Positions 913 to 64,000 of a DNA stretch of 64,000 bases are shown here, piece after piece. The DNA is from Bacteroides uniformis. Lineage in GTDB: Bacteria > Bacillota_I > Bacilli_A > RFN20 > CAG-826. The notes under the pieces were generated by a model that was not told the origin of the DNA, made no database searches, and was given only the letters and a program-made list of their open reading frames with translations. Position 1 is the stretch's first letter. Every line of letters starts with the position of its first letter. The DNA lies in NCBI GenBank assembly GCA_963641445.1, contig CAVIBR010000001.1, forward strand, positions 244,920 to 308,919, read 5' to 3'. The translations under genes and the position numbers were made by a program.

Positions 913-1155
913 TTCGTTTTTTCCTCCTTTTTTCGCGTTAATTATTTTAGGAGAAAATAATCACATTTAAAGAAAAATTAACTTCATTTCAAAAATAAGA
1001 GGGTTTCGCGGTAGATTTTTGCTTTTTTTTGAAATCCTTACTTCGTTTTCGTCTCATGAATTAAAAGAAGAAAGCACTCATCATTAATTTAGACGTACTA
1101 AGAAACCCAATTTCGGTAAAAATAAGATTGAACTAGATGATTTTTGAACGTGAAA

Positions 1156-1202
1156 ATGTCAATTCACGCACGAATTATGTCAATTCACGCACAATTTGTG
1201 CC
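1156..1202 (+). promoter_or_regulatory. Candidate operator: 16-bp direct repeat x2 (ATGTCAATTCACGCAC) with internal inverted repeats, upstream of sugar-transporter/GH3 operon
   Basis: Exact 16-bp repeat at 1156-1171 and 1177-1192 (21-bp periodicity); GAATT-n5-AATTC and GTGAA-n8-TTCAC inverted arms; followed by near-palindrome GCACAATTTGTGC. Confidence 0.45.
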
Positions 1203-1283
1203 ATTTTTCGGTGTTGGCGTGTTTTTGTTTTGCAAAACGTTTATCATATATGTAAAGGCTTACATTATATTAAGGAGCATTTT

Positions 1284-3281
1284 ATGTCGAAGAACAATTC
1301 AAAAAAATCGATCTTCACGAACCCCCTCTTGTCCACCAAAATCAAGAGCAGTAGCGTGAAGCTCTTCCCAGAAGCAGCCCTTGGCTATCTTCTAGGGCCA
1401 ATCCTCGCCCTGATCTCGAATGGCGTTGTAAACATCTGGCTTATCCAATATTGGGATAAAGTCTTGATGCTTGGAGATTGGAATCCTTTATTCGAGACCC
1501 TTTTGCCAATTCTCTCTGCCATACTTATCGTTATAGGCAACCTCTTTGTTGGCAAATTGATGGAAAAGAAACCTACAATCGCAGGTAAAGCAAGACCATT
1601 CATTCTATTAGGAATGCCTCTTGTTGCTATTGCCCTTTTGGTTTTATTCATCGTTCCTCTCCCAACTGGAAACGGAACTGCTGCCGATATTGGTGGAACG
1701 GGCGGAAGTTTCTCTAATCTTTGGGCTAGTATCATCATTGCAATTGGCTATAACCTCTATTACGCCTTTGCTTGGCCAATCTATTACACATCACATTCAG
1801 CATTAGTTAACCTTTCAACAAGAGATGGTGGATCCCGTGGTCTTCTTTCTACTTGTATCATGGCCGCTCAGCTTGGCGCTGCCGGACTCTCTGGCATGGC
1901 TGGCGGTATCTTAGTCGACCTTATTGGCTTACTACCTGTCTATCACGTCAATAGCCTTGATAAAAACTTCTCAACCTATAAAGAAGCACTTACTGCAGCA
2001 GGCGGAAATGCTTCAGATATTCTTACGAAAATCACCCCTGCCGAAGCTAATAGCAAATGGACGATTCTTATGATCATCATGATTGTCTGCTTAGTCATCG
2101 GCTGCTTACTTGAATATTATTTCACCCGTGAAAGAATCACCGAAGAAAACGTCAAGACCCTTGAAATGAAAGAAGTTAACGGACAAGCAGATGCAACTCC
2201 AGTTTCAAAAGGCGTCACGATGAGCGAACAAATCTATATTTGTATGCATGACAAATATTGGTGGATCATCATGATATTCTTCTTCCTCTATCAATTTGGC
2301 GGACAGATGAAAAACAACGACCTTTCATTCTATTCCCAAGCCTTCACTGGCGGAACTTCACTCTCTTCATTTATCAATACCTTAGGCGCTATCCCAACGG
2401 CATTAGGCATGTTACTTGTATGGCCTCTTGCTAATAAATTCACCAAATCAAAGACGATTATTGGCGGATGTGCGGTTGCCTTCCTTGCTTCCCTTCTCTC
2501 ATTCATTTGCTTAATTCCTAACGCAGGAGAAGCAACAATCTGGTCTGTTTCTATCGTTTCCTTCATGATTAAGGCTTTAGGAACTGCCCCAGCTATGTAT
2601 ATCTCTTTAGCCCTTCTTGCTAACGTTCTTGATCACCAAGAAGCATTATATGGTAAGAGAACAGATGGCTTCACGATGTCCATCTATGGTTCCATCATGG
2701 TTGCCATGTCTGGTGTTTGTAATGGCATCATCGCTGGTCTTAATTCCGCTTTCCCTGAAGGAGGAAAAATGCTCCACACAATCCTTGGCTATATCGTCGA
2801 GGGTGGTTGCTACCTCATCATGGGACTTATGTTCTTGGCAATGAACGTTGAAAAATTCACAAAGATTGATAATGCGACAATCATCGCCGATCAAAAAGCT
2901 AAGACTTTAGCCGAAGGAAAAGAATGGCTTGAGTCAGAAGAAAGAGCCGCTAAAGAAGAAGCTGAAAACGCTCGCTTAGTCGAAGAAGCTCGTATCGCCC
3001 AATTAAAAGCTGATTGCGAGAAGAAACGTCTTAGCTTCGATGAAGAAAATGCAAAATTCCTTGCTGAAAAAGCAAAGAAAGATGCAGCTGCAGCTCAAAA
3101 GAAAGCTCAATCTGAAGAAAAGAAAGCTGCAAAAGAAGCACTTAAGAAAGCAAGATTCGATGCTCTTCCAGAGGATAAGAAAGCTAAGATTATTGCAAAA
3201 CAAGAGCAAAACGAAGAAAAGATTGCTTCGGAATTTGCCGTCCTTAAAGAAAAAGCCAAAGAAACAGGCTTGGCTGCTTAA
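1284..3281 (+). CDS. Glycoside-pentoside-hexuronide (GPH)/MFS-type sugar:cation symporter with long C-terminal Lys/Glu/Ala-rich coiled-coil tail
   Basis: Start chosen at ATG 1284 (RBS AAGGAG 8 nt upstream; the 1137 ORF extension has no RBS); ~12 TM helices with MelB/GPH-like layout; last ~140 aa are low-complexity KEAA-rich (EEAENARLVEEARIAQLKAD...KKAAKEALKKARFD). Confidence 0.7.
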   Translation: MSKNNSKKSIFTNPLLSTKIKSSSVKLFPEAALGYLLGPILALISNGVVNIWLIQYWDKVLMLGDWNPLFETLLPILSAILIVIGNLFVGKLMEKKPTIAGKARPFILLGMPLVAIALLVLFIVPLPTGNGTAADIGGTGGSFSNLWASIIIAIGYNLYYAFAWPIYYTSHSALVNLSTRDGGSRGLLSTCIMAAQLGAAGLSGMAGGILVDLIGLLPVYHVNSLDKNFSTYKEALTAAGGNASDILTKITPAEANSKWTILMIIMIVCLVIGCLLEYYFTRERITEENVKTLEMKEVNGQADATPVSKGVTMSEQIYICMHDKYWWIIMIFFFLYQFGGQMKNNDLSFYSQAFTGGTSLSSFINTLGAIPTALGMLLVWPLANKFTKSKTIIGGCAVAFLASLLSFICLIPNAGEATIWSVSIVSFMIKALGTAPAMYISLALLANVLDHQEALYGKRTDGFTMSIYGSIMVAMSGVCNGIIAGLNSAFPEGGKMLHTILGYIVEGGCYLIMGLMFLAMNVEKFTKIDNATIIADQKAKTLAEGKEWLESEERAAKEEAENARLVEEARIAQLKADCEKKRLSFDEENAKFLAEKAKKDAAAAQKKAQSEEKKAAKEALKKARFDALPEDKKAKIIAKQEQNEEKIASEFAVLKEKAKETGLAA

Positions 3282-3297
3282 TTCTAGGAGAAACGAA

Positions 3298-5745
3298 ATG
3301 AAACATCAAGATATCTTAGATAAGCTTTCCCTCGAAGAAAAAGCCTCCTTGCTTTCAGGAAAAAACTTCTGGGAAACGCAAGAAATTCCTTCCGCTAACG
3401 TTCCTAGTATGTTTCTCTCTGATGGTCCTAACGGCCTTAGAAAACAGGCTAAGGCCGCTGACCATTTGGGATTAAACCCATCAATTCCAGCTGTTTGTAT
3501 GCCAACAAGTGCTACATCAGCATGTTCTTGGGATCCTGAACTCTTACATTTAGTTGGTAAGACAATCGGAGAAGAAGCGGCTGCTGCTGATGTCTCGCTC
3601 CTTTTAGGACCTGGCATAAACATGAAAAGAAACCCACGCTGTGGAAGAAACTTCGAATATTTCTCTGAAGACCCATATCTTGCTGGCAAACTTGCCGTTG
3701 GATATACAAATGGCGTTCAAGAAAATGGCATAGGCGTTTGTTTAAAACACTTTGCTGCCAATAACCAAGAAATTAGAAGAATCACATCAAACTCCGTTGT
3801 TGATGAAAGAACCCTTAGAGAAATATATCTCACTGCTTTTGAAATAACCGTCAAAGAAGCAAAGCCATTATCGGTCATGTCTTCTTACAACAAAGTCAAT
3901 GGCATATATGCCAACGAGAATCCCCACCTGTTAAAAGAAATCCTCCGCGATGATTGGGGATTTGATGGAATTGTCGTTTCAGACTGGGGTGGCGATAACG
4001 ATCGTATTGAAGCAGTTAAAGCCCAATCTGAGCTTGAAATGCCTACAACCGATGGTGAAACAAATAGAGAAGTTGTCCAAGCCGTTAAGGATGGTCGCTT
4101 AAAAGAAGAAGATGTTGATATTCTTGCTGATGGCATCATCGATGTTGTCTTAAAAACCACCGAGAACCTTAAGAAGGCCCCAAAAGAATTTAACAAAGAA
4201 GAACATCACTCCATCGCTCAAAAAGTCGCAGAAGAATCTCTCGTTCTCTTAAAGAATAAAGACAACATCCTTCCATTAAAAGAAGGAAGCAAGATTGCCA
4301 TCGTTGGTGATTTTGCAGAAAATATGCGTTACCAAGGCGCAGGATCTTCCGTTGTTAATCCTTTGAAGGTTGATCAAATCAACGATGTTCTAAAAGAATA
4401 CAAACTCAACGTCGTTGGATACGAGCCAGGTTTCAAACGTTATGGCAAGAAGAACCAACGTTTAATCGATAAAGCCCTTAAGCTTGTAGAAAAATGCGAT
4501 ACCGTACTTCTCTTCTGCGGATTAGATGAAGTCACTGAAGCAGAAGGCATAGATAGAGCAAATATCCGTCTTCCGGGAAATCAAAGAGAATTAATTTCCG
4601 CTTTGTATCACACGGGAAAGAAAATCGTTCTCATCATTGAATGCGGTGCGCCAATCGAAATGCCATTTGCTGATAGAGTTGACGCTATCTTACATGCATA
4701 TTTAGCTGGTGAAGCAGGCGCTAGAGCAATCATCAACATCCTTGTTGGAAAAGTAAATCCATCAGGAAAATTGGCTGAATCATATCCATATGGCTATGCA
4801 GATTGTCCATCCGCTGACCACTTTGGAAAAAACGATAAGAACATCGAATATCGTGAAGGCCTCTATATCGGTTACCGTTATTACAATGGTGATAAGATCG
4901 GTGGAGCACGTTTCCCGTTCGGTTATGGCTTAAGCTATACTACATATAAATACGATAATCTTGTTGTTAGCAAAGATGGCGTTAAATTCTCCATCACTAA
5001 CACTGGAAAAGTCGATGGAAAAGAAATTGCTCAGATGTATATTGGCATGAAAGATTCAAAGATCTTCCGTCCAATCTATGAATTAAAAGGTTTCAAGAAA
5101 GTCTTTATTAAGGCTGGAGAAACCGTTGAAGTAAGCATTCCATTTGATGAATATTCATTCCGTTACTGGGATACAAAAGAAAATAAATTTGAAACTGAAG
5201 GTGGAACATATCAAATATATGTTGGACCTTCATCTAAAGAACTCCCATTAACCGGAGAAATCAAGGTTGAAGGAAAAGATGCCTCTGGAGTATACGATAA
5301 GGAAAAACTTTCACATTACTTCTCAGGAGACGTCAGACAAATCGGCGATGATGAATTCAAAGAGCTTCTTGGTGGAGAACTTCCTCCAAAAGATGAAGCA
5401 TTCGTCAAGAAACACCGTATTGTCGTTGACTACAATTCTTCGATATCTGATTTACATTATGCGAAGGGCTTTGCGGGCAGGCTTTTTGCCGGGTCAATCC
5501 GCTTTGCGATTAAATTTTTACGCAAGATTGGCAAAAGAACTACTGCAAATACCCTCGTAATGGGTGTATACTACAACCCAGTTCGTGCCTTATCTAGAAT
5601 GACAGGCGGAGCAATGAGCATGGCCCAGCTCGATGGTCTCATCATCATGTTCAATGGGCATTTCTGGAAAGGACTTCACCATTTTAACAAAATGGGACGT
5701 GCTAGAAAGAAAGAAAAAAAGGCCAAGGGGAAGAAAGAGAAATAA
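3298..5745 (+). CDS. Glycoside hydrolase family 3 beta-glucosidase (BglX-like) with C-terminal basic extension
   Basis: Start at ATG 3298 (RBS AGGAGAAACGAA). GH3 signatures: KHF(A)ANNQE, VVSDWGG (catalytic Asp), FPFGYGLSYTTY, FnIII-like domain; extra ~170 aa basic tail ending RARKKEKKAKGKKEK. Confidence 0.85.
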   Translation: MKHQDILDKLSLEEKASLLSGKNFWETQEIPSANVPSMFLSDGPNGLRKQAKAADHLGLNPSIPAVCMPTSATSACSWDPELLHLVGKTIGEEAAAADVSLLLGPGINMKRNPRCGRNFEYFSEDPYLAGKLAVGYTNGVQENGIGVCLKHFAANNQEIRRITSNSVVDERTLREIYLTAFEITVKEAKPLSVMSSYNKVNGIYANENPHLLKEILRDDWGFDGIVVSDWGGDNDRIEAVKAQSELEMPTTDGETNREVVQAVKDGRLKEEDVDILADGIIDVVLKTTENLKKAPKEFNKEEHHSIAQKVAEESLVLLKNKDNILPLKEGSKIAIVGDFAENMRYQGAGSSVVNPLKVDQINDVLKEYKLNVVGYEPGFKRYGKKNQRLIDKALKLVEKCDTVLLFCGLDEVTEAEGIDRANIRLPGNQRELISALYHTGKKIVLIIECGAPIEMPFADRVDAILHAYLAGEAGARAIINILVGKVNPSGKLAESYPYGYADCPSADHFGKNDKNIEYREGLYIGYRYYNGDKIGGARFPFGYGLSYTTYKYDNLVVSKDGVKFSITNTGKVDGKEIAQMYIGMKDSKIFRPIYELKGFKKVFIKAGETVEVSIPFDEYSFRYWDTKENKFETEGGTYQIYVGPSSKELPLTGEIKVEGKDASGVYDKEKLSHYFSGDVRQIGDDEFKELLGGELPPKDEAFVKKHRIVVDYNSSISDLHYAKGFAGRLFAGSIRFAIKFLRKIGKRTTANTLVMGVYYNPVRALSRMTGGAMSMAQLDGLIIMFNGHFWKGLHHFNKMGRARKKEKKAKGKKEK

Positions 5746-14715: not shown

Positions 14716-14866
14716 AAACAATAAAGAAAAAATTTAATGCAATATATTAGAATTTATATTGCATTTTTTGTTTTTACTTTGCGAAACCTTTCATATCGGT
14801 ATCATTTTTTTGAAATAGTCGTTAATTAATGTAAAAATGTTAGCGGTTTCATTTAAGGAGGATTAT

Positions 14867-31286: not shown

Positions 31287-33722
31287 ATGAAAAAATCAAA
31301 ATTATTAGTTTTCTCCCTTGCCTCAGTCTTAATGCTTGCTGGCTGTGGAGATAACCAAACCTCATCCTCTACTGAAGGAGCTTCTTCCTCAAACACAAGT
31401 GAAGTAGTTTCTTCCTCCGAAGAATCTTCAACAAGCAGTTCTTCCTCCGAAAGCTCTTCGAGCGAATCTTCTTCTGAAGTAGTAATCGAAACTGCAACAA
31501 TCAAGAAAATCACCAACTATGTTACTGAAGGAACATTAAACGTTACCGAAGGTGACAAAGTTGAATTGAATTCAAAAATCACTTTAACCTTCACCGAAGC
31601 CGTTTCAGACAAGGAATATCAAATTCTTGTTAACCAAACAATCGCCGATATGGAATGGGCCGAAGATAACCTTTCTTGCTTCTACACCTTAAATGCAAGC
31701 AAAGACGAAGAAATCTCAATTGCCCTCATAGAAAAGAATCCTACTTCCGAAAATGGACAGACAATCACCTTCGAACAAGGCGAACACTACAAAGTCCTTG
31801 GCATCGTCTCCGGCCAAAAATATGAGCCACTTGATGACTATTCTGAAGAATTAGAAGATTGGGTCACGGTCTCGATCGATTTTGCAATCATCGTCGATGA
31901 AGGATATATTCTTGCTAAACCAATTTTAACTGTTGATGGGATTGACCAATCTCTTTCTAAAAATGATCAAGGTCTCTATTCAATTGGTAAATGGGATTTG
32001 ACTGGCGCAGGCGCTTTGACAATCAATGTTAACAAAGCAGTTGAACACACGATCACATATACTGGTGCAGAAAATCTTGATACAGCGGCATCTAACATCC
32101 CAACAACCTTCATGGGTGGAGATACGATCACCTTCAAGTTCATTGCCAAGGGGGGATTCTCTGTCACGGCCGTTTCTGTCCAACCATATGATAATTCTTA
32201 CTATTATCAAAAAGATTATTCCAACTACACAATCACTCTTCCAAATGAAGATGTGCAAATTGCCATAACTACAGTCGCATCATATGCAATTAAATTGTCT
32301 TCAACCGAGCATCTTTCTAATATCGGATTCTATTCAACGGCTGAGTATGGTTCCGATTCCGAAGGCAATACCGCTCTTAAATTATCAGACGAAATAACAA
32401 CTGCTCCTTCTAACCAACGTTTCTATGTCGCATTCAACGTTGAAGATGGGTACAAAGTTAGTGAAATTGTTGGTGCAGAAGTTGCAGGACTTGCCGAAGG
32501 CGCTCAATCATGGTGTGGTTCAACGGACGGCAGAATCGTCTTCAATTGCACTCTCTATGGTGAAACGGAATTAAAACCAGTCTTTGTCACAAAGAAGAGC
32601 GTTACATTAGACTCTTCAACCGACTCTGATAAAGTCTCTCTTGTCTTTACTGGTGATGTTAACACGTTCTTCCCTGAAGATGACGTTAAATTCAACTTCT
32701 TACTTGAAGACACAAAAAATACAAGAATTGGCCAAGTCTATTATTGCTATACTGATGAAAATGGTGAAGCAGTTGAAAAAGAAGTCAACTATTCAAAATA
32801 CTACAGCAGTTATACCTTTGTTATGCCAAATGCAGACGTTACCATCAAAGCAGAAGTTATCGATATTGTTAAAACAACAGTATCTTATTCAAATACGGCT
32901 GGAAGCCTTGTTGGATCAGTCAATATAGTTGGTGCAACAAGCGGAACCAAACTAGATGACTCAACAAGCACATCAGACTCATTCGAAGAAAAAGAATCTC
33001 TTAATATTACAATCAAAGCCGGGCCTGAACATTTTAAGAAGGTCGCGGCAAACCTTGTTACCGCTACTGAAACAACTGCTATTGAATTAACACTCAACAT
33101 TGCAAAAGGAACCTACACCGGTAGCGTTTCCGTTCCAGTTGGTGGAGCAACAATTCAAATCGTTGAAGGCGAATATGCCACTGTTAGAACATTAACCGCT
33201 TCTGAAACAAGCACGATTGAATATTACGAAAGCACTGATGTATCATCCAAAGTTAATATATTAGGAAATCTCTACGACATGGATGTCTTCTATTTCGTTG
33301 TTAAGGATACACCAGCTGAAGGATATTCACTTTCCGTTTCCGTTAAGATTGATGGAGAAGAAGTACCATCCTTAAGTACAGTCACAATCGGTGATGAAAC
33401 TGCTTATAAGGTTATCGTTTCTGGCAATGTTGAAATCTCTGTTGAACAAGTTCAAGCCGTTTCATTCGGTGTCTCTGGCGCTGACTACGAAGGAGATGGA
33501 TCTGATATTTTCATTGACTTTGATACAAATGATTATATCCAAGTTAACAATGGAACAATCAAATACGGCACAAGATTCTATTTAGATGATCCTGATTATG
33601 GTAGAGAAATAGAAACAATAACAATTGGCGGAGAAACCGTTAAGCCTGACTATATTGATGGATTCCATGGCGTTTATACAGCTACAGGTGATGTAGTTAT
33701 CACTCTCATCGAAGCGTATTAA
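31287..33722 (+). CDS. Large surface lipoprotein with poly-Ser linker, hypothetical
   Basis: Start at MKKSKLL (RBS GAAAGGA); lipobox LAGC|G; SSSEESSTSSSSSESSSSESSSE linker; repeated T/V/G-rich beta modules. Confidence 0.6.
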   Translation: MKKSKLLVFSLASVLMLAGCGDNQTSSSTEGASSSNTSEVVSSSEESSTSSSSSESSSSESSSEVVIETATIKKITNYVTEGTLNVTEGDKVELNSKITLTFTEAVSDKEYQILVNQTIADMEWAEDNLSCFYTLNASKDEEISIALIEKNPTSENGQTITFEQGEHYKVLGIVSGQKYEPLDDYSEELEDWVTVSIDFAIIVDEGYILAKPILTVDGIDQSLSKNDQGLYSIGKWDLTGAGALTINVNKAVEHTITYTGAENLDTAASNIPTTFMGGDTITFKFIAKGGFSVTAVSVQPYDNSYYYQKDYSNYTITLPNEDVQIAITTVASYAIKLSSTEHLSNIGFYSTAEYGSDSEGNTALKLSDEITTAPSNQRFYVAFNVEDGYKVSEIVGAEVAGLAEGAQSWCGSTDGRIVFNCTLYGETELKPVFVTKKSVTLDSSTDSDKVSLVFTGDVNTFFPEDDVKFNFLLEDTKNTRIGQVYYCYTDENGEAVEKEVNYSKYYSSYTFVMPNADVTIKAEVIDIVKTTVSYSNTAGSLVGSVNIVGATSGTKLDDSTSTSDSFEEKESLNITIKAGPEHFKKVAANLVTATETTAIELTLNIAKGTYTGSVSVPVGGATIQIVEGEYATVRTLTASETSTIEYYESTDVSSKVNILGNLYDMDVFYFVVKDTPAEGYSLSVSVKIDGEEVPSLSTVTIGDETAYKVIVSGNVEISVEQVQAVSFGVSGADYEGDGSDIFIDFDTNDYIQVNNGTIKYGTRFYLDDPDYGREIETITIGGETVKPDYIDGFHGVYTATGDVVITLIEAY

Positions 33723-51177: not shown

Positions 51178-52419
51178 TTAGAATTCGCTATTTAAGAGGG
51201 TGATACCATCAATGGTGATATCAAAATATGGAGCGGAACGCTTAGAACTTTCAGCAAAGAAAGTGATTCCGTCTTTAGTTTCAATAGCTTCTGTATCGCC
51301 AGTATAGGCTGCATCAGTATCAACATCTGCAAGATAAGAAGTAATATGACCCTCTCCATCAACTTTCATTGCTGATGTGATGTTCTTTCCAGAGACAGTG
51401 AAAGTAGAAGTATCGAATACTTTGAGGGTGCCGTTTCTAAGTTTGCCTGCAACTTCGTTAACTTTATCTTCTGTTCCGGCGACTGTTGCAACTTTACCAA
51501 ATTCGCTTAAAGCAACCGAACCATTGCTTAAAGTTGAACCTAAATCGCCAGTGTAATCAGTTTCGATTGATTCACCTTTTTTGAGTTGTTGGAAACAATA
51601 TTTGAAATATGGCTCCCAATCGATTTTTGAAGAAACTAAATACGTATTTGGGCATTTAGATTCTGTTGAGCCGTTATAGGAAACGTTAGGAACGTTCTTG
51701 CTTTCGCAAATAGTTGGAGCTCCCCATGAGTCAGCGTGTTGGGAGATAAGTGAGCAACCACCGGAGATCAATTTTTCTGCGGCTGTTTTTTCGGCTGTTT
51801 CATCATACCAAGATCCAGTGAATTGAACATCCATCGTAACGTCAGAAACAATTGATTTAACGCCAAGATAGAAAGAAGTATAGCCAGAGATAACTTCGGC
51901 ATATGTATAAGCACCGACATAGCCAATCTTCTTAGATGTGCTAGCATCTTTTGAAATCATATCTTGGAGTTTTAAACCTGCTGCAACACCGGCAAGATAT
52001 CTTCCTTCATAGATTGAAGCAAAAGCATTATGGAAATTAGAAACGTTTGCGGTATGCGCTTTGGTTCCGGAAGCGTGAGCGAATTGAACATTAGGTTCTT
52101 CTTTGGCTGCTTTGATGAGGTAATCTTCATGTCCGAACGAGTCAGCAAAGACGAATTTGCATCCAGATTCAACTAAATCGATGGATTTTTCGTAGGCATC
52201 ATTGGATTCTTTGACACTTGTTACGATTACTGGAGTGACGTTTTCTGCTTCAGAAGCTGCTTTGAAAGCGTCGATGAAGTTCTTGTCATAAGTAGAGCTT
52301 TCATCATGTAAAGCAATAAGGCCGACTTTGATTGTGTCGTCTTTCTTTGTTTCGCCGCAACTAGCTAAAGCGGTAATGGTGAGGATTGATAAGGCTGCTA
52401 ATTTAATACACTTTTTCAT
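51178..52419 (-). CDS. BMP-family (Med/TmpC/PnrA-like) nucleoside-binding lipoprotein, substrate-binding component
   Basis: Lipobox ALAS|C; BMP fold motifs (IKVGLIALHDESSTYDK...DAF); ~60 aa longer than typical at C-terminus. Confidence 0.8.
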   Translation of the reverse strand: MKKCIKLAALSILTITALASCGETKKDDTIKVGLIALHDESSTYDKNFIDAFKAASEAENVTPVIVTSVKESNDAYEKSIDLVESGCKFVFADSFGHEDYLIKAAKEEPNVQFAHASGTKAHTANVSNFHNAFASIYEGRYLAGVAAGLKLQDMISKDASTSKKIGYVGAYTYAEVISGYTSFYLGVKSIVSDVTMDVQFTGSWYDETAEKTAAEKLISGGCSLISQHADSWGAPTICESKNVPNVSYNGSTESKCPNTYLVSSKIDWEPYFKYCFQQLKKGESIETDYTGDLGSTLSNGSVALSEFGKVATVAGTEDKVNEVAGKLRNGTLKVFDTSTFTVSGKNITSAMKVDGEGHITSYLADVDTDAAYTGDTEAIETKDGITFFAESSKRSAPYFDITIDGITLLNSEF

Positions 52420-52511
52420 GTGTTCTCCTATTCTTGTCCGTAACCCTTGTTTGAGAATTGGAAAGAAAGCAAGTCTAACAAATGAAAAAGCTAGATACTG
52501 TTAAGATTTTG

Positions 52512-52580
52512 CTTGTTCATAGTGTTGGATTAAGGTCCAACGTAGAAACTTTCCGCCAATCCGGCAATTATACGAACAAT
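52512..52580 (-). ncRNA. Purine riboswitch, guanine class (C74), leader of nucleoside ABC transporter operon
   Basis: Minus-strand RNA GUUCGUAUAAUUGCCGGAUUGGCGGAAAGUUUCUACGUUGGACCUUAAUCCAACACUAUGAAC: P1 GUUCGUA/UAUGAAC, conserved UAUAAU, J2/3 AAGUUUCUAC (exact), P3 GUUGGA/UCCAAC, then A-C-UAUG with C at specificity position. Confidence 0.8.
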
Positions 52581-52746
52581 GTCTTTCGACAACATATTTT
52601 GAAACATATTCAGTCAATATAAAAGAGGAAATTACTCTGAAAACGGTTTCAAAAAAAATTTACAATCTTTTTCTAGCCAAATTGTAAAGACGGGTATAAC
52701 CTTAAAAAATAGAGCGATGTTTCTATAAATCCATAGGAGAACATTA

Positions 52747-56329: not shown

Positions 56330-57253
56330 ATGCCAATAAAAGATTATTCAATGCTAGATTTAATCGGAAATACTCCACTCATCCGTCTAAGAAAGATCGA
56401 AGAGAAATATTCTTCGTCTTCCCCAATATATGCCAAAGTTGAAAGATGCAATCCAACCGGATCTATCAAAGATAGAGCAGCAAAAGAAATGATTCTTGCC
56501 GCTTTAAAAGAAGGAAAAATCAATAAAGATACAACGATTATCGAACCAACTAGCGGAAATACTGGCATAGCCTTAGCAGCAATAGGCGCAACACTTGGAA
56601 TGAAAGTTGTTTTCTTCATGCCTGCTAATTGTTCAATCGAAAGAGTGAAAATGATGAAAGCATTTGGCGCAGAATGTCGTCTAGTTAAAGAAGGTGGCAT
56701 GGCTCAATGCATCAAAGAAGCAGAAACCCTTCACCAAGAAATAAAGAACTCTTTCATTCCTCTTCAATTTGATAATATAAACAATTCCTTAGCCCACTAT
56801 AAAACCACTGGACCAGAAATATATGTCCAAACTGCTGGGGAAATTGCGATTTTTGTTGCTGCTTTTGGAACAGGAGGAACGCTTTCTGGCACGACTAAAT
56901 ACCTTAAAGAAAAGAAACCTTCCTTAATATCTGTTGGAGTGGAACCTGCTGGCTCACCATTTGTTTCAACAGGTAATAAAGGCCCTCATAAGATTCAAGG
57001 CATTGGCGCAGGATTCAAACCTGAAATCCTTGATCTTAACTTAGTTGATAAAATCTTAACCATCACCGATGAAAAAGCATACGAACTAACAAGAGCCATC
57101 GCTAAAGAAGAAGGGCTCTTTGTTGGAATCTCTTCTGGCGCTAATGTTGCAGCATCTTTAGAAATGGCAAAAGAATACCCAGGAAAGATAATTGTAACCG
57201 TTCTTCCAGATAACGGAGAAAGATACCTTTCAGTCCCTGAATTATTTGAATAA
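56330..57253 (+). CDS. cysK: Cysteine synthase A (O-acetylserine sulfhydrylase)
   Basis: LIGNTPLIRL, PLP-lysine motif SIKDRAA, GTGGT loop; 307 aa. Confidence 0.85.
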   Translation: MPIKDYSMLDLIGNTPLIRLRKIEEKYSSSSPIYAKVERCNPTGSIKDRAAKEMILAALKEGKINKDTTIIEPTSGNTGIALAAIGATLGMKVVFFMPANCSIERVKMMKAFGAECRLVKEGGMAQCIKEAETLHQEIKNSFIPLQFDNINNSLAHYKTTGPEIYVQTAGEIAIFVAAFGTGGTLSGTTKYLKEKKPSLISVGVEPAGSPFVSTGNKGPHKIQGIGAGFKPEILDLNLVDKILTITDEKAYELTRAIAKEEGLFVGISSGANVAASLEMAKEYPGKIIVTVLPDNGERYLSVPELFE

Positions 57254-57254
57254 T

Positions 57255-58049
57255 ATGAACTTAATAGATTTAGAAAAGCAATTCGAAAAAAATCCTTCTA
57301 TTGAACCATTCAATAAAGAAGAAATTGATTCATTTTTAATACACGCATCCGCTCTTTTGATGTTTGAATACCAAGAAAAGCCATATTCAAAAGAGAAATT
57401 AGAAAGCCTCTACAACATCGTTTCAGATGAATTAGACATCCTCCTAAAGAATGAAGAAAAACATTTCTCATTCAAAGAAAAGTTTCTTTCCTCATTGCCT
57501 GATATAAGAAGAAGTCTTAACACATCCCTTGAAGCAATAATCGAAGGAGACCCTGCAAGCACATCTAAACAAGAAATCGTTTTAATGTATCCAGGATTTG
57601 AAGCAATCCTTAATTACCGCATTGCACATGAATTCTATCTAGAAGGCCTTTCCTTAATTGCTAGATATATCTCCGAGAAAGCGCATAAAGACACCGGAAT
57701 AGATATTAATCCTGGCGCTACAATAGGTGATTATTTCTTCATTGATCATGGAACAGGTATTGTTATTGGTGAAACTGCTATATTAGGAAATAATGTAAAA
57801 CTCTATCAAGGAGTAACTCTTGGTGCTTTATCTCTTTCAAAAGGAAGAGGACTAATCGGCAAGAAAAGGCATCCAACAGTTGAAGATAACGTTACCATCT
57901 ATTCCAATGCGGCAATCTTTGGCGGAGATACGATAATTGGTGAAGGATCAGTAATAGGAGGAGACGTATATCTCACTCACTCAGTAGATCCGAATAGCCT
58001 CGTCCTTCAAACTGATAAAAATTTAACAATCATTCATAAGGAAAAATAA
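57255..58049 (+). CDS. cysE: Serine O-acetyltransferase
   Basis: Left-handed beta-helix hexapeptide repeats GIDINPGATIGDYFFIDHGTGIVIGETAILGNNVKLYQGVTLG; ATG 57255 two nt after cysK stop (ORF track start is TTG 57246). Confidence 0.8.
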   Translation: MNLIDLEKQFEKNPSIEPFNKEEIDSFLIHASALLMFEYQEKPYSKEKLESLYNIVSDELDILLKNEEKHFSFKEKFLSSLPDIRRSLNTSLEAIIEGDPASTSKQEIVLMYPGFEAILNYRIAHEFYLEGLSLIARYISEKAHKDTGIDINPGATIGDYFFIDHGTGIVIGETAILGNNVKLYQGVTLGALSLSKGRGLIGKKRHPTVEDNVTIYSNAAIFGGDTIIGEGSVIGGDVYLTHSVDPNSLVLQTDKNLTIIHKEK

Positions 58050-58056
58050 GCAATAA

Positions 58057-58088
58057 GACCTGAATATCAAATGAGTTCAGGTTTTTTC
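58057..58088 (+). terminator. Rho-independent terminator after cysE
   Basis: acctgaa-tatcaaatgag-ttcaggt + T6. Confidence 0.7.
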
Positions 58089-58175
58089 TTCCGAAGAAAT
58101 TGCCATTAAAAACGCTTGGTTTTAGTCAGAAATGATTGTTTGAAAATAACAATATTTTTCCTAATCTTCTTTTTT

Positions 58176-58250
58176 ATAGAATTCTATATTTTTTGCTATT
58201 TGATTAATCAAATAGAGGCACCAATTTTCGACAATTTTATAGAATTCTAT
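58176..58250. promoter_or_regulatory. Twin 12-bp perfect palindromes ATAGAATTCTAT (58176-58187 and 58239-58250) within 31-bp direct repeats; candidate operator pair
   Basis: ttttatagaattctatatttttgctatttg and ttttatagaattctatatttttgtcgatttg; centre-to-centre 63 bp (6 helical turns). Confidence 0.5.
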
Positions 58251-58404
58251 ATTTTTGTCGATTTGTTAAAGAAAAATATCAATTATTATTGAAGAAGATC
58301 TAAATGCGTTGTTACAACTATGTCTTTTTTATAATGAAATTAGTCAATTCACCATATGAATGTTTCTAATTAATTAACTTGCTTAAAATTTTTACAAATA
58401 AATG

Positions 58405-58435
58405 TTGCAAATTAGAAGGGGGGGGTCTCTATAAT
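58405..58435 (+). promoter_or_regulatory. Candidate sigma-A promoter TTGCAA-19 nt-TATAAT with a G8 homopolymer inside the spacer (potential slipped-strand phase-variation switch)
   Basis: ttgcaa attagaa gggggggg tctc tataat; G-run 58418-58425; 60 nt upstream of ATG 58494; poly-G is compositionally anomalous in this AT-rich genome. Confidence 0.5.
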
Positions 58436-58493
58436 TTTGACATTGAAAGCGCTTACTTGCGCGAAATAAAAAATAAAAGGAAAGGTTATTTCT

Positions 58494-59075
58494 ATGAAAA
58501 AACATCAAAAGGTGTTATTAGGATTGATGGTCCTAGGCCTTGCTGGCGGTGTCGGCACGGCTGTAGCGTTGACCCGTAACGCGGCAACGGATTCAACCGG
58601 CGGTGGCTTAGATCAAGCTATCTATCTAAATTGGGGTAATGAGGTCCAAAATTCCGAAGCACAAGCAACAGTCGAAAACTTAGTTGCAAAAGCTCCTCAG
58701 TATCGTTATCTTGTTGTAACAACAAAGGCAACGAATTTATTAAAAGGAAATGTCACATTAACATTTACTGCGGCAACTGAAGAAGATACCGTCATGACTG
58801 GCTTAACGATTGACGTATATTCCGTTACAACTGAAAAAACTTCGACCTTCGTTACTTCAACTGAAGAAGGTATTGCACCAGACAAACTTGAAGGAACGAT
58901 TTCCGAAACGAACAAAACCGTAACATCAAAATTCGCTGTTGATGGAACAGCAGCAACGAGCTTAACTCATTACTACACGTTGGTCTTCACATGGGATGGC
59001 ACATCGCCTGAAGATGCAAACAAATCAATTGGCGCGAATCTAACAGTTTCACAGGATTTCGCTATTGCAGAATAA
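58494..59075 (+). CDS. Secreted protein with SipW-cognate-like signal peptide (TasA/TapA-like small subunit candidate)
   Basis: MKKHQKVLLGLMVLGLAGGVGTAVALT resembles TasA/camelysin signal (…GGGTWAAFND); mature part beta-rich T/V-rich ~160 aa; first gene of cluster with sipW. Confidence 0.45.
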   Translation: MKKHQKVLLGLMVLGLAGGVGTAVALTRNAATDSTGGGLDQAIYLNWGNEVQNSEAQATVENLVAKAPQYRYLVVTTKATNLLKGNVTLTFTAATEEDTVMTGLTIDVYSVTTEKTSTFVTSTEEGIAPDKLEGTISETNKTVTSKFAVDGTAATSLTHYYTLVFTWDGTSPEDANKSIGANLTVSQDFAIAE

Positions 59076-59089
59076 AGGAGCTATAGATT

Positions 59090-60187
59090 ATGAAAAAGAT
59101 GAATAAATTTATTGTCGCAGCTTCTTTAACTGCTGGTGTTGTTGGCTGCTTTGGAGCAGCGTTTGCTCTCTACAAAAAGGCCGAAAATCCATTAAATATT
59201 GGTATTGGCAAAGTCACCACCCACGGTGACTCGACTGCCGTAATCAATTACTCATTTGGCGATGGCGTTACTGCGTACAAAGATGAAGCTTTGGAAAATA
59301 CAATTAGTTTAAAAGATAACGTTATTTCACCTGAAATTAATAAAGTTTATCTTAAAGTTCCTCTTCAATTCAAATATACAACCGAAGATGCAAGCTTCAC
59401 TAGCCAAGGAACAACCGTTGGCCGTTTCTCAGTAACTGTTGATATTAATGAAAAAGTCAGAACTGCAGGCAACGTAGTAGTTGGAGCTAAACTTTGCGGG
59501 TATGAAAAAGTTACCATAACAGGCGACGACCAGCAGAACTACGATGTAGATACATATTTTACAGCCGAAAAAACAAAGAATTTCTTCGATACTACATTTA
59601 ATAATGAAACTACAACTAAAGTAACGAAGTATATAGATACAGCAGTTGATAAAACCAGCATTTATTGTGTTATCTCAATTGATATGAGTGCCGCTATGAC
59701 TGATGATAATTATAAATATTATGACTTAGTCAACGAACTTAAAGACGGAAATGCTTTCGATGTTTCTCTTAATTGGGAAGGCTATAAGAGCACTCTTGCG
59801 AACTTTGATACTAAACTTGTACCTAATGCATATGTCCGTGGCGACTATAGCGACTGGGGAATACGCGAAGGATATCAAATGGTTCCAAATATCAAAGGAC
59901 GTGTAAATATCGGTTCCGATGATAGCCATTGGGAATGGGGCGTTGAATGGACCTATAAGATCTTAAAGAACTTCAGTGTTATTAAGGTATACGACGAAAG
60001 TGATACTTTAGTTAATGACAGCGGCTGGGTTTATTGCAGAGGTGTAGCAGCAGGCTCTGGAGCTACTAAAGAAGACAATGGTAATGCCAAGCTTGATAGC
60101 GAAAAGACTTATGACATCTATTACAAGCGTAATTGCAAAACTGAAGCTGGCTTCTGGGTCGACCCTGGTTCTGAAAGCGTAGACTAG
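59090..60187 (+). CDS. Secreted TasA/camelysin-like protein candidate with C-terminal Trp-rich beta domain
   Basis: Signal ...GVVGCFGAAFALYKKAENPLNIGIGK (AAFA-Y motif as in SipW substrates; shares A-x-A-x-Y-(x4)-N-x-NIGI with 60903 gene); RBS AAGGAG. Confidence 0.45.
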   Translation: MKKMNKFIVAASLTAGVVGCFGAAFALYKKAENPLNIGIGKVTTHGDSTAVINYSFGDGVTAYKDEALENTISLKDNVISPEINKVYLKVPLQFKYTTEDASFTSQGTTVGRFSVTVDINEKVRTAGNVVVGAKLCGYEKVTITGDDQQNYDVDTYFTAEKTKNFFDTTFNNETTTKVTKYIDTAVDKTSIYCVISIDMSAAMTDDNYKYYDLVNELKDGNAFDVSLNWEGYKSTLANFDTKLVPNAYVRGDYSDWGIREGYQMVPNIKGRVNIGSDDSHWEWGVEWTYKILKNFSVIKVYDESDTLVNDSGWVYCRGVAAGSGATKEDNGNAKLDSEKTYDIYYKRNCKTEAGFWVDPGSESVD

Positions 60188-60208: not shown

Positions 60209-60874
60209 ATGAAAAAGAAGCAAAAGAGAAAAAATAAAGTTATTTCGATAATTGGCGAGGTGCTCTTATGGGCTCTCGCTCTCTTTTGTGTTTCCGTTTC
60301 ACTTGTAAGCACGATTGACACACATACAAACTATTCGTGTTCTTACTTTGGATTAAGAACATCGGTCATTGTTTCTAATTCAATGGCTAATGCCAATCCA
60401 GAGAACACTTATTTAGATTCTTCGATGACTCGGATAAACAAATATGATGTTATAACCGCTAAAGAGGTCTCATATGATGATATATCTCTTTATGACGTCG
60501 TCCTTCATGTTGAGGGAAACAATCTTATTTGTCACCGAGTCATCGATAAGTATCAAGACAATGGAACATCGTATTTAGTCACCCGTGGTGATTCAAATAA
60601 CGTTAATGACGCTCCATTTGCTTACTCATCGTGTAGAGGCAAAGTCATCAATGTTATTCCAAATATAGGAGAAATGGTTCTCTTCCTTCAAAGTGGTTAT
60701 TTCTTCCTAGCCTTATTCTTCTCGATATTCCTTGTCGCTGGAACTCTCTTTACGATCTCTTTTGTTTCTGAAAAGAAAAAAGCTAAGGCAATAAGCCAAT
60801 CTAATACCAATGCTGATATAATTGACGTTGAGATAAATAAAGAAGATCCTTCAAAAGAAAACAAAGAAGAATAA
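60209..60874 (+). CDS. sipW: SipW-type (archaeal/ER-type) signal peptidase I, S26 family
   Basis: N-terminal TM, catalytic Ser box VSNSMAN (SxSMxP-like), conserved HRV...TRGDSNNVNDA (GDNN-x-D box), and a C-terminal TM as in B. subtilis SipW. Confidence 0.7.
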   Translation: MKKKQKRKNKVISIIGEVLLWALALFCVSVSLVSTIDTHTNYSCSYFGLRTSVIVSNSMANANPENTYLDSSMTRINKYDVITAKEVSYDDISLYDVVLHVEGNNLICHRVIDKYQDNGTSYLVTRGDSNNVNDAPFAYSSCRGKVINVIPNIGEMVLFLQSGYFFLALFFSIFLVAGTLFTISFVSEKKKAKAISQSNTNADIIDVEINKEDPSKENKEE

Positions 60875-60902: not shown

Positions 60903-62246
60903 ATGAAAAAATGCAATAGAATCATATTGCCGATTTCTGTCATATCTTTTTCCTTTGCCTTAATTTCTCTTAACCATGCTCTTGCAACATATATGAATAC
61001 TGCAAGTAACATCAATATAGGCATATCAGGAGTTACTCCAAGTTATTATCTTGAGTGGAATAGTGGCGAAAAAGAAACGTTAGCTAGTGATGGTTCAACC
61101 ACTCAATATAGCAAAACGGTTAATATATCTGAAACAGGCAGCTATTCATATAAAATAGTCGATATTAACAATAATGAAATATTCTCTCAATCATCGTTTG
61201 ACGTGGGTTTGACCGGGGATTTTTCAATTTCTTTTGATTCTGAAACAAAGAAATCATCCATAACTTATTCATTCTCAGTCCTAGATCATGGAAAAGTATT
61301 TGGCGAAGGGATGTATTGCTATGCAAGTGAAAACGATCCAACCGCAGTCGGGCATAAGATAATTGGAAGTTTCTGCAACTGGTCGTTAGGATCTTCTAGT
61401 GCTGTTCAAATGTCAAATAATCCTAATAATTCTGATGATAAAGGGATGGCGAGACATGTCTATCTTGCAAACGGAAACACATTTAAGCTCGTTGATTCAA
61501 ATGGAACTTATTATGGCTATTCGAAGTTAAAATCAGCAAATGATTTTGATGACTTTGGAAATTGCTTTAGCGAAGACACAAATTCAGATTCTAATATAAC
61601 TGTAACTAAATCCGGATATTATGATTTTTGCTATGCTTCAGATGGAAATTTATATGTTTCTAAGAGCGATGAAGCGGAATACATTCAAGGAACCACCGAT
61701 GGGATAATTACAACATTCACGCTAGATGCAACCAAATACGCTTCATCCAATACATATTTGTCTTTTTATGGAAACGAAACAGCTAAACATAGTGGAACAG
61801 CGGATATAGCATATTTATTCTCTTCAGAAACTAATGCTACATGTCTAATGACAAAGGATATCTATTTGAACCCTGGAAAATGGAATACCGCTAGTGCTTG
61901 GTTTATGGCTGGAGTTGGTTCAACAAACTCTTCAAAGACAAATTACGTTAAAATGGTACAAAACGGAGACACTTATTATTCTATGAGTTTGCTAACTTCG
62001 GATGCGTATGCTGATTTCTATCGCATGAATAGTGAGTATGATAAATCCGATCCAAAGTATAATGATCCATCTTATAAATGGAATATGGTTAGCTCATTAT
62101 CCGATGGAAAAGATATTGATGTTGCAAATTATTCCTGCTTCTCAATAATTGAAAATTCAGGTGGATCATGGACTGAAAATGATTGCTCAATAACATCCAT
62201 TCCAACAGGACTCCCTCAATATAGTCCTATTCCATATATTAACTAA
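60903..62246 (+). CDS. Secreted protein with SipW-cognate-like signal and two putative CBM25/26-like starch-binding modules
   Basis: Signal ...LNHALATYMNTASNINIGISG; motifs IGSFCNWS...YLANGNTFKLVDSNGTYYG and YLSFYGNE...AYLFS...LMTKD...GKWNTASAW...VQNGDTYYS resemble CBM25/26 (VYF..W..Y.YFW...MTKD..GW...NNG...YY). Confidence 0.45.
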   Translation: MKKCNRIILPISVISFSFALISLNHALATYMNTASNINIGISGVTPSYYLEWNSGEKETLASDGSTTQYSKTVNISETGSYSYKIVDINNNEIFSQSSFDVGLTGDFSISFDSETKKSSITYSFSVLDHGKVFGEGMYCYASENDPTAVGHKIIGSFCNWSLGSSSAVQMSNNPNNSDDKGMARHVYLANGNTFKLVDSNGTYYGYSKLKSANDFDDFGNCFSEDTNSDSNITVTKSGYYDFCYASDGNLYVSKSDEAEYIQGTTDGIITTFTLDATKYASSNTYLSFYGNETAKHSGTADIAYLFSSETNATCLMTKDIYLNPGKWNTASAWFMAGVGSTNSSKTNYVKMVQNGDTYYSMSLLTSDAYADFYRMNSEYDKSDPKYNDPSYKWNMVSSLSDGKDIDVANYSCFSIIENSGGSWTENDCSITSIPTGLPQYSPIPYIN

Positions 62247-62261
62247 AGGAGATAAACAAAT

Positions 62262-64000
62262 ATGAAGAAAAAGAATCTAAATATCTTATTATTCACAGGA
62301 TTATTGCTAAGCATTTTTTCCTGTTCTCCTTCGAATGATACTAGTAGCAATACTACCGACGAAACTATCTCCTCAAAAGAAGAAGGAACAAGTGAAAGCC
62401 CATTATCTTCATCAACTTCATCTAGTACAAGTTCTTCATTATCAAAGAAAGATGACGATCCAGATATTTCTGAAAAATTCACCGGAATAGTAAGAATTTA
62501 TTTCCATGATGATGGAGGAACAGAAAAAAACAAAGCAATCTATTGCTGGATTTCAGGCGTAGACGGAACAGAATATGCCTGGGATGGAGAAGAAGATGGT
62601 TATGGCACATACAAAGATATCGACCTTTCTGATCCTAAATTCATCGATAAAGTAACAGATGATTTCTATTTCATCATCAAATATCCCGCAACATGGGATG
62701 GGCAAAGCGATGATATCAAAATCGTTCTTTCTGATTATCTAAAGAATGGTGAAGTAGATACCCTAGAAAATGGTAAAAAAAGAATAAATGTTTTCGCTTG
62801 CGATGAAGGAGGAGGAAACTACGTTACCTATTACCATAAAGCAGACGCACTTGGTTTCCGTTTTGGCACAGCAACCATAGAAAAAGACTGGAAAACATTA
62901 AAGGTAACTTGCACTGGCAAATGTGTTTCCTATTCACTATATGCACTTGATGGAGCCTTTGCTGCTAAAAAGATAGCAGTAACCGATCCAGAAGCCAATC
63001 TAAGTTCATACCTCATAAAAGAAGACAAACCTAACGTTGATTCTTTTGAACTTGATCTGACTTCCTTAAGCTATCCAACAGGTAGAGCAGTAACAGTAAG
63101 ACCAAACCTTACTTTCATGCTTATTGGTCATTTTGAAGACGCTCCAGAGAAAACAAAAACCAAAGCAGTTTCTTTCGATAAGCTTTTTGATACCGATAAA
63201 TTCATCTCTGATTACACCTATTCCGGCGATGATTTAGGCGTGACATATAGCAAAGAACGTACCGAATGGAAGCTTTGGAGTCCACTTTCAGTTAAAGCTG
63301 ATTTAGTCCTCTATAGAGACGGAACCCCTAAAGCGCTTGTCACCGATAATTCCGGCGGATGGAATGATTTTGCCTATAAAGTAGAATCAATGAGATATGA
63401 CTCAAACGGAGTATACGTTGCTGCATTAAAAGGGGACTGGTCTGGATATTTCTATCAGTATCGTCTCTATTACAACGGAACGTATGTTGATACACCTGAC
63501 CCATATGCCACCTCGTGTGGGCTTAATGGAGTTCGCTCTGCTGTAACTGATTTCTCCTCCCTCAACCCAACTGGATGGGATGATATTTCCTATACAGCCT
63601 TATCTTCTCCAACGGAATTAACTCCTTATGAAGTTCATATTAGAGATCTGACATCTCACTCAACTTGGATCTCTAGAAAAGGAAATGAAAGAGGAGGATA
63701 TAACGCCTTCCACGAAAAAGGAACGGGGTTTAACGGGGTAAAAACGGGTTTTGACCATATAAAAGAGTTAGGAGTCAATGCAGTTCAACTCTTACCAGTC
63801 TTTGATCAAGATAATGATGAAAGAACATTGACCGATAAGAATGGCGTAGTCCATAAACCTAACTATAACTGGGGATATAATCCAGCTAACTATAACTGTG
63901 TGGAAGGATCCTATTCCTCAAACCCAAGCGATCCAAATGTCCGTGTCAAAGAATTCAAATCTCTAATTAAAGATTATGCTGATGAAGGAATAAGAGTAAT
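62262..64000 (+). CDS. Type I pullulanase (GH13) lipoprotein, 3'-truncated by window end; not present in supplied ORF track
   Basis: ATG 62262 after AAGGAG; signal+lipobox IFSC|S, Ser-rich linker; pullulanase signature YEVHIRDLT (YN/E-x-H-x-RD), GYNAFHEKGTG, NWGYNP; open through 64000. Confidence 0.8.
   Translation, partial: MKKKNLNILLFTGLLLSIFSCSPSNDTSSNTTDETISSKEEGTSESPLSSSTSSSTSSSLSKKDDDPDISEKFTGIVRIYFHDDGGTEKNKAIYCWISGVDGTEYAWDGEEDGYGTYKDIDLSDPKFIDKVTDDFYFIIKYPATWDGQSDDIKIVLSDYLKNGEVDTLENGKKRINVFACDEGGGNYVTYYHKADALGFRFGTATIEKDWKTLKVTCTGKCVSYSLYALDGAFAAKKIAVTDPEANLSSYLIKEDKPNVDSFELDLTSLSYPTGRAVTVRPNLTFMLIGHFEDAPEKTKTKAVSFDKLFDTDKFISDYTYSGDDLGVTYSKERTEWKLWSPLSVKADLVLYRDGTPKALVTDNSGGWNDFAYKVESMRYDSNGVYVAALKGDWSGYFYQYRLYYNGTYVDTPDPYATSCGLNGVRSAVTDFSSLNPTGWDDISYTALSSPTELTPYEVHIRDLTSHSTWISRKGNERGGYNAFHEKGTGFNGVKTGFDHIKELGVNAVQLLPVFDQDNDERTLTDKNGVVHKPNYNWGYNPANYNCVEGSYSSNPSDPNVRVKEFKSLIKDYADEGIRV

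Follow-up and report, generated by a model that had tools for sequence, protein, structure and literature searches.

The stretch of DNA that we analyzed (64,000 nucleotides, hereafter the window) ends in a unit of five genes, g1 – g5, with gaps of 14-28 nt between them; cysK (56330-57253) and cysE (57246-58049) are the upstream neighbours. The genes and the elements at the 5'-end of the unit are listed in Table 1. An earlier note on this DNA had counted four genes downstream of the promoter and described their products as secreted or surface proteins. The description holds for g1, g2 and g4, each of which encodes a secreted protein, but g3 encodes a membrane signal peptidase, and the fifth gene, g5, a lipoprotein pullulanase, had been overlooked. 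Elsewhere, glycoside hydrolases are numerous in the window (GH2 and two GH3). Two of its long open reading frames, 1137-3281 (an MFS_2 sugar transporter) and 3040-5745 (a GH3 glycosidase), share about 240 nt that are read in different frames, probably due to a mis-called start of the second.

Table 1. Features of the five-gene unit and its upstream region. Positions are those of the window unless a contig is named.
Feature	Position	Strand	Remarks
Intrinsic terminator of upstream cysE (stem-loop and T6)	58057..58087	+	MFE -12.5 kcal/mol, z = -3.2, then UUUUUU
Two 41-nt direct repeats, 63 nt apart	58172-58212, 58235-58275		perfect 14-bp palindrome TATAGAATTCTATA in each
AT-rich block CTTAAAATTTTTACAAATAAA	58382..58402	+	abuts the -35; AAATTT core invariant in 9 loci, several species
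-35 hexamer TTGCAA	58405..58410	+	TTG aligned here in all related loci
Promoter spacer ATTAGAAGGGGGGGGTCTC	58411..58429	+	19 nt in this strain; 18 nt in every other intact strain of the species
G8 homopolymer, length-polymorphic tract	58418..58425	+	G7 or G5/G6 in other strains
-10 hexamer TATAAT	58430..58435	+	perfect; invariant in most related loci
cre-like palindrome TGAAAGCGCTTACT	58444..58457		predicted +2 to +15; one mismatch to TGWAANCGNTNWCA
Ribosome-binding site AAAGGAAAGG	58476..58485	+	8 nt before ATG; GAAAGG invariant
g1, 193-aa secreted beta-sandwich protein, putative major fibre subunit	58494..59075	+	signal peptide
g2, 365-aa secreted two-domain beta-sandwich protein	59090..60187	+	signal peptide; no family match
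g3, SipW/Sec11-type (archaeal/ER-type) signal peptidase I	60209..60874	+	most conserved in the cluster
g4, 447-aa secreted protein with SusE/SusF-like (starch-binding type) domain	60903..62246	+	PF16411
g5, pullulanase-like lipoprotein, lipobox LSIFSC	62263..64000	+	runs off the window
IS110-family element	L007:1-1552, L008:1-25 (about window 58418)		right junction only recovered; one lineage

The product of g4 scored 31.2 bits against PF16411 (gathering score 27.5; E = 3.3e-7; residues 153-266); it is a SusE/SusF-like protein with a predicted starch-binding domain. The orthologue of g5 in L004, a contig from the same species, is 1014 aa in length and contains Alpha-amylase and CBM_48 domains. 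The g3 product matched TIGR02228 with E = 2.9e-11 and 43.5 bits, which is below the cut-off of 51.85, the SipW model NF046067 with E = 8.6e-7 and 28.7 bits against a cut-off of 190, and SEC11C in the PDB with E = 0.018. Its translation contains the motifs VSNSM, ICHRV and TRGDSNN in the expected order, which we take to be the catalytic Ser, His and GDNN-type boxes of the signal peptidase family.

Searches for TasA/camelysin (Peptidase_M73) produced no Pfam or NCBIfam match to g1, g2 or g4 at E ≤ 0.1, and a profile built from g1 homologues found no PDB chain at E ≤ 10. The structure model of g1 has modest fold similarity to TasA-type fibres (7ueg, 9h8b, 9bac, 7pnb and 8aur are among its best PDB matches), suggesting that g1 might be a beta-sandwich subunit with a weak resemblance to TasA and to archaeal fibre subunits. 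The g2 model (pLDDT 83) yielded weak PDB matches, to lectin- or CBM-like beta-sandwiches. The ‘SipW/TasA-like’ label that the earlier note attached to the cluster is thus borne out by the SipW/Sec11 motifs of g3, at a score below the NCBIfam cut-off, and by the modest fold similarity of g1, but not by any TasA/camelysin sequence match. With 20 clusters in a set of 5.8 billion sequences, g1 belongs to a small family, and the member lists of 10 of these clusters held no truncated or extended variants other than P0024 and P0005. An exact-pattern scan of genome contigs with the flanks of the G tract gave no match, and in two exact-pattern scans of metagenome contigs the clade was absent from the JGI metagenome collection. 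The lone metagenome match to the pattern (L026) sits in an unrelated gene and was set aside as a chance occurrence.

The eight-G homopolymer lies within the 19-nt spacer that separates TTGCAA from TATAAT, and our coordinates agree with those of the earlier note, which had called the run highly non-random. No other G/C run of at least 7 is present in the 64-kb window, where the runner-up is a single G6 (32150-32155), and Markov simulation of the window produced 0.18 (order 1) or 0.06 (order 3) G/C runs of at least 8 per 64 kb. A run of this length is unusual for the window, yet possible somewhere across a whole genome; we regard it as non-random because it is located inside a conserved promoter and recurs in relatives. 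A consensus promoter scan passed over this promoter, since it accepts only spacers of 16-18 nt. The spurious open reading frame that had been pointed out across the tract is also present (58379-58579, ‘...LEGGGL...’). Two other arrangements of the hexamers were considered and rejected. A perfect TTGACA at 58437-58442 lacks a usable -10 at a distance of 16-19 nt and is not kept in relatives, and TGCAAA as the -35, which would leave 18 nt of spacer in the G8 allele, fits at only 3/6 positions.

The proposal that the two hexamers form a real promoter was borne out by the comparison of orthologous loci, a check that had been suggested with it. Scanning genomes yielded 10 diverged loci (L012-L021), all with the gene order g1-g2-sipW-g4-pullulanase. 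These 10 syntenic loci keep in position an AT-rich block, a TTG-type -35, a spacer of 16-18 nt and TATAAT, and across the loci the -10 is followed by 8-11 nt, the palindrome TG(A/T)AAGCGCTT(A/T)C(A/T), about 35 nt, GAAAGG and the ATG. The layout is conserved although the g1 proteins of these loci are only 37-55% identical. Because the hexamers hold their positions relative to the AT-rich block, the cre-like operator and the ribosome-binding site in all 10 loci, we conclude from this conservation that TTGCAA/TATAAT is the promoter of the five-gene operon, and transcription is predicted to start near 58442. The terminator of cysE is in agreement with this conclusion: cysE is terminated well, so the downstream genes need a promoter of their own and the operon is insulated from read-through.

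Several conserved elements flank the promoter. The AT-rich block resembles an UP element. At the 3' side of the predicted start site lies a probable CcpA-type catabolite-repression operator (58444-58457): GAAAGCGCT is invariant in the aligned loci, and all loci of the clade have a cre-like palindrome at this place. The window contains 20 cre-like matches compared to 5.7 expected, mostly preceding genes; similar sites occur ahead of other genes at 14838, 23259, 28572, 40371 and 52638. The operon is probably catabolite-repressed, which would fit its content since it carries a pullulanase and a SusE/F-like protein, and for the same reasons the label ‘secreted-fibre cluster’ used in the earlier note is too narrow. 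The 41-nt direct repeats upstream of the AT-rich block are possibly an operator pair for some regulator. They were found in this species only, in all of its strains that cover the region: both copies are present in L001, L002, L004, L009 and L010, a single copy is present in L005 and L022, whose contigs start within the repeat region, and the repeats are absent from L012-L021. Folding of the 5' untranslated region gave nothing beyond a weak 4-bp hairpin (z = -1.6). An Rfam search found no match in the promoter or the 5' untranslated region, its sole match in the window being a purine riboswitch (RF00167, 52.8 bits) at 52500-52595 on the minus strand, upstream of a minus-strand operon that starts at 52419. 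An A6 run (58467-58472) between the cre site and the ribosome-binding site is A5 in L003, L007, L008 and L022.

We then compared the length of the tract among strains, using same-species contigs that were gathered by exact-protein look-ups and stem from several sequencing runs. L001 (Logan assembly, run SRR13434599) matches the window at 100% identity over 3193 nt, G8 included. Eight contigs (L002, L003, L004, L005, L006, L009, L010 and L022) have G7 and an 18-nt spacer. G7 is the allele of runs SRR13434598, SRR13434600, SRR19415656, SRR19415659, SRR19415677, SRR19415678 and SRR19415681. When near-identical contigs were grouped, they fell into approximately six lineages with G7 and one with G8, that of the window, at 2-9% nucleotide divergence. 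In the two remaining contigs, an IS110-family element inside the G tract replaces all upstream sequence, the -35 included; its product is a protein of 433 aa with DEDD_Tnp_IS110 and Transposase_20 domains (IS allele, run SRR13434671). Over 937 nt, L007 and L008 show zero substitutions, and their sole difference is G5 in L007 versus G6 in L008. The NCBI MAG and Logan contigs pair one to one (window/L001, L004/L005 and L007/L008), and the members of a pair are probably two assemblies of the same read set. Mixed reads or disagreement between assemblers would then account for the G5/G6 difference, which could be an assembler discrepancy or represent two registers of the IS insertion. The tract is thus polymorphic in length within the species. 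Its consensus length is fairly stable, and the tract not wildly unstable, because six lineages at 2-9% divergence share the same G7. The earlier note had proposed that the loss of one G would improve the spacer, and this is consistent with the common allele, G7 with 18 nt in six lineages, and with the 16-17 nt spacers of other species.

Homopolymers recur at the same gene across the clade. In L015, from a sister species whose cysE is 91% identical to that of the window, the promoter consists of TTGCTA, TTTTTTTCAGGGGGGGTC and TATAAT; the tract is again G7 and the spacer 18 nt, while the flanks of the tract differ. A locus 99.6% identical to L015 (L025, run SRR13434610) has the interrupted tract GGGGCGG (L025:~158-164, corresponding to L015:1087-1093) in a spacer of unchanged length, which may be a ‘locked’ allele; since the interrupted tract has the same length, an uninterrupted run is not strictly required. 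A different homopolymer, A16, begins within the predicted -35 (TTGAAA) and fills the spacer in L021 (5901-5916) and L023 (1401-1416); the run is the same in both contigs. The promoter tract is missing from L012-L020 except L015, and most of these loci have clear spacers of 16-17 nt. The GC content of one locus, L013, is 27%, far below that of the other related loci (36-39%).

A third position for homopolymers is inside g1 itself, where an intragenic G run at codons 47-49 (TGG GGG GGT, Trp-Gly-Gly) is found in three species. The run is an in-frame G7 in L012 (2924-2930) and L019 (6143-6149). In L020 it is G8 (666-673), which leads to a frameshift with a stop at codon 50, and one G fewer restores a full-length homologue; the frameshift could be an assembly error. 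The g1 of the window reads only TGGGGT at this position. All G/C runs of at least 7 and all A/T runs of at least 10 in the 197 kb made up of the window and the related loci are located at g1 or its promoter.

The operon also stands out by the variability of its secreted products. Across loci the identity of g3 is 58-81%, compared to 32-55% for g1, g2 and g4, whose N-terminal signal peptides are followed by hypervariable mature parts. In g1 the signal peptide (MKKHQKVLLGLM...) is nearly invariant. Within the species, L022 carries a different g1 allele (L022:257-856 versus window 58494-59075), and the encoded protein is 48% identical overall; its promoter, 5' untranslated region and signal peptide are almost identical to those of the window despite the swapped g1, and the strain's g2 (L027) has 89% identity. 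A conserved 5'-end followed by a hypervariable mature part is the pattern that would be expected of an exposed antigen or phage receptor. In g4, a 6-nt in-frame insertion distinguishes L004, L005 and L009 from the window (61689-61695).

Taken with the conserved promoter, these observations lead us to lean towards the interpretation that the tract is a simple-sequence contingency element, that is, a slipped-strand on/off switch of the operon promoter. The tract lies between the hexamers, its length differs among strains and the product is of the surface type, three of the features by which phase-variable simple-sequence repeats of promoter spacers are recognized. Candidate phase-variable tracts are usually called from G/C runs of at least 7 (PMC6321876), although 7-8 G is short, with mutability at the low end and rates that may be less than 1e-5 (PMC6321876). 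The comparisons support the core of the phase-variation reading put forward in the earlier note, in that the tract is polymorphic and homopolymers recur at g1, one of them frameshifted; the constancy of G7 counts against it.

The same constancy fits an ordinary inherited spacer with no switching role, in which G8 would be one fixed +1 indel, neutral or mildly down, and the other homopolymers at g1 unrelated accidents. We consider this explanation possible but rather unlikely. The difference between G7 and G8 needs only one mutational event, further 1-nt indels are present in the same intergenic region (the A6/A5 of the 5' untranslated region is an example), L025 tolerates an interrupted tract, and most species of the clade do without a tract in the spacer. 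However, a neutral G7 in intergenic DNA of about 25-35% GC should decay, yet it is kept in L015 amid a spacer that has otherwise changed. Accidents would also have to account for the confinement of all long homopolymers in 197 kb to three positions at g1 and its promoter, one of them in an OFF frame, and for a tract that changed between L007 and L008 over 937 nt without a single substitution.

An improbable alternative is that the G run has some other purpose, as a protein-binding or DNA-structure element or a preferred target of IS110-family elements, and that its variation in length is incidental. The insertion of an IS110-family element exactly in the tract of L007/L008 would fit a preferred target, and IS110 targets are chosen by sequence via a bridge RNA (PMC11208160). 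The insertion was found in one lineage only, however, and the promoters of related species, which share the architecture without the G run, argue that the promoter can function without the run. Neither a binding site nor an IS target would explain the intragenic G runs and the A16. It is very doubtful that the G8 is a sequencing or assembly artefact of a true G7: homopolymers are prone to error and at the tract the window departs from all other strains by just +1, but the independent Logan assembly (L001) also reads G8, eight other contigs from the same pipelines read a clean G7, and short reads are normally reliable at runs of 8 nt.

In the slipped-strand interpretation that we favor, a promoter of the housekeeping-sigma (sigma-A/sigma-70) type with the G tract in its spacer would drive the five genes, whose products are the secreted beta-sandwich proteins g1, g2 and g4, the dedicated SipW-type signal peptidase g3 and the surface pullulanase g5. 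Slipped-strand changes in the length of the G run would alter the spacing of the hexamers. The G7 allele, with its 18-nt spacer, would be the common, expressed state, and the G8 allele of the window strain, with 19 nt, would bind RNA polymerase more weakly and leave the whole operon low or OFF. With a perfect -10, the 19-nt spacer may lower transcription rather than abolish it. The cre operator just 3' of the start site would add catabolite (glucose) repression to this control. The comparisons show the identity of the promoter by its conservation, the polymorphism of the tract and the recurrence of homopolymers at g1; how a spacer of 18 or 19 nt affects transcription, and whether, how fast and how reversibly the tract slips, we infer. 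The promoter G8, the frameshift caused by the intragenic G8 of L020 and the IS110-family insertion of L007/L008 look like independent ways to shut off g1.

Phase variation through repeat tracts has been described chiefly in pathogens, among them Neisseria, Haemophilus, Campylobacter, Helicobacter, Treponema and Mycoplasma. The tracts of Neisseria are about 9-14 in length, and switching has been measured there. In contrast, the tract described here has 7-8 G, belongs to a low-GC, Gram-positive-type gut bacterium and would control a five-gene operon with a cre operator. It resembles porA and opc in that a G/C homopolymer (poly-G in porA, poly-C in the opc promoter) sits inside the promoter of a surface-protein gene. 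In N. meningitidis the poly-G between the -35 and -10 of porA sets expression, and in porA and opc, where the G/C homopolymer lies in a sigma-70-type promoter of a surface protein, one-base changes grade expression from high to none (PMC7864442). Poly-G tracts of about 7-11 in or beside the promoter are likewise described for tp0126 and the tpr genes of T. pallidum (PMC7864442). [quoted passage not shown] The pairing of poly-G and cre site in the window parallels the pairing of poly-G and CRP-type regulator in Treponema. Treponema differs in being a spirochaete pathogen in which heterogeneity of tract length within an isolate was seen by fragment analysis, whereas the alleles described here are known from consensus sequences.

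The other alleles of the clade have counterparts as well. The vlp promoters of Mycoplasma hyorhinis carry poly-A in the -35/-10 spacer of surface-protein genes, and this is exactly the layout of the A16 run in L021/L023; the vlp genes are single lipoprotein genes of a wall-less organism, and the tract in the window is itself poly-G. A well-known reversible OFF switch is provided by IS492, a member of the IS110 family, which inserts into and excises from the eps locus of Pseudoalteromonas atlantica. The IS110-family element in L007/L008 similarly interrupts a surface-structure locus, parting the -35 from the -10, but unlike IS492 it is represented by one lineage and by the right junction only. 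With respect to the genes, the operon is like tapA-sipW-tasA of B. subtilis in encoding a SipW/Sec11-type signal peptidase among secreted beta-sandwich substrates, and TasA-like fibres of archaea (bundling pili, cannulae and threads) have been described (PMC9245690, PMC9674648).

A broader reading, which we offer tentatively and hold to be doubtful, is that the clade, made up of uncultured low-GC gut bacteria, keeps a hitherto undescribed surface ‘starch-harvesting fibre’, made up of SipW-processed TasA-like subunits with starch-binding modules and a co-expressed pullulanase, under stochastic on/off control that arose three times or more at this one gene. The three origins would be the poly-G of the spacer, the poly-A of the promoter and the poly-G in codons 47-49, with the IS110 insertion into the tract as a fourth route to the OFF state and the window strain as a natural OFF or low variant. 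The alleles found here (G7, G8, the interrupted tract, the IS insertion, the intragenic G7/G8 and the A16) form a natural series for comparison.

The switch that we propose is of a known kind, but its host group is unusual and the operon is uncharacterized: a poly-G-type device would be located, in uncultured gut commensals, ahead of conserved, co-transcribed genes for surface proteins and a pullulanase. If the proposal is correct, the display of a surface structure would vary stochastically among the cells of one strain, which may be relevant to escape from phages and antibodies because the subunits are hypervariable, and also to the capture of starch.
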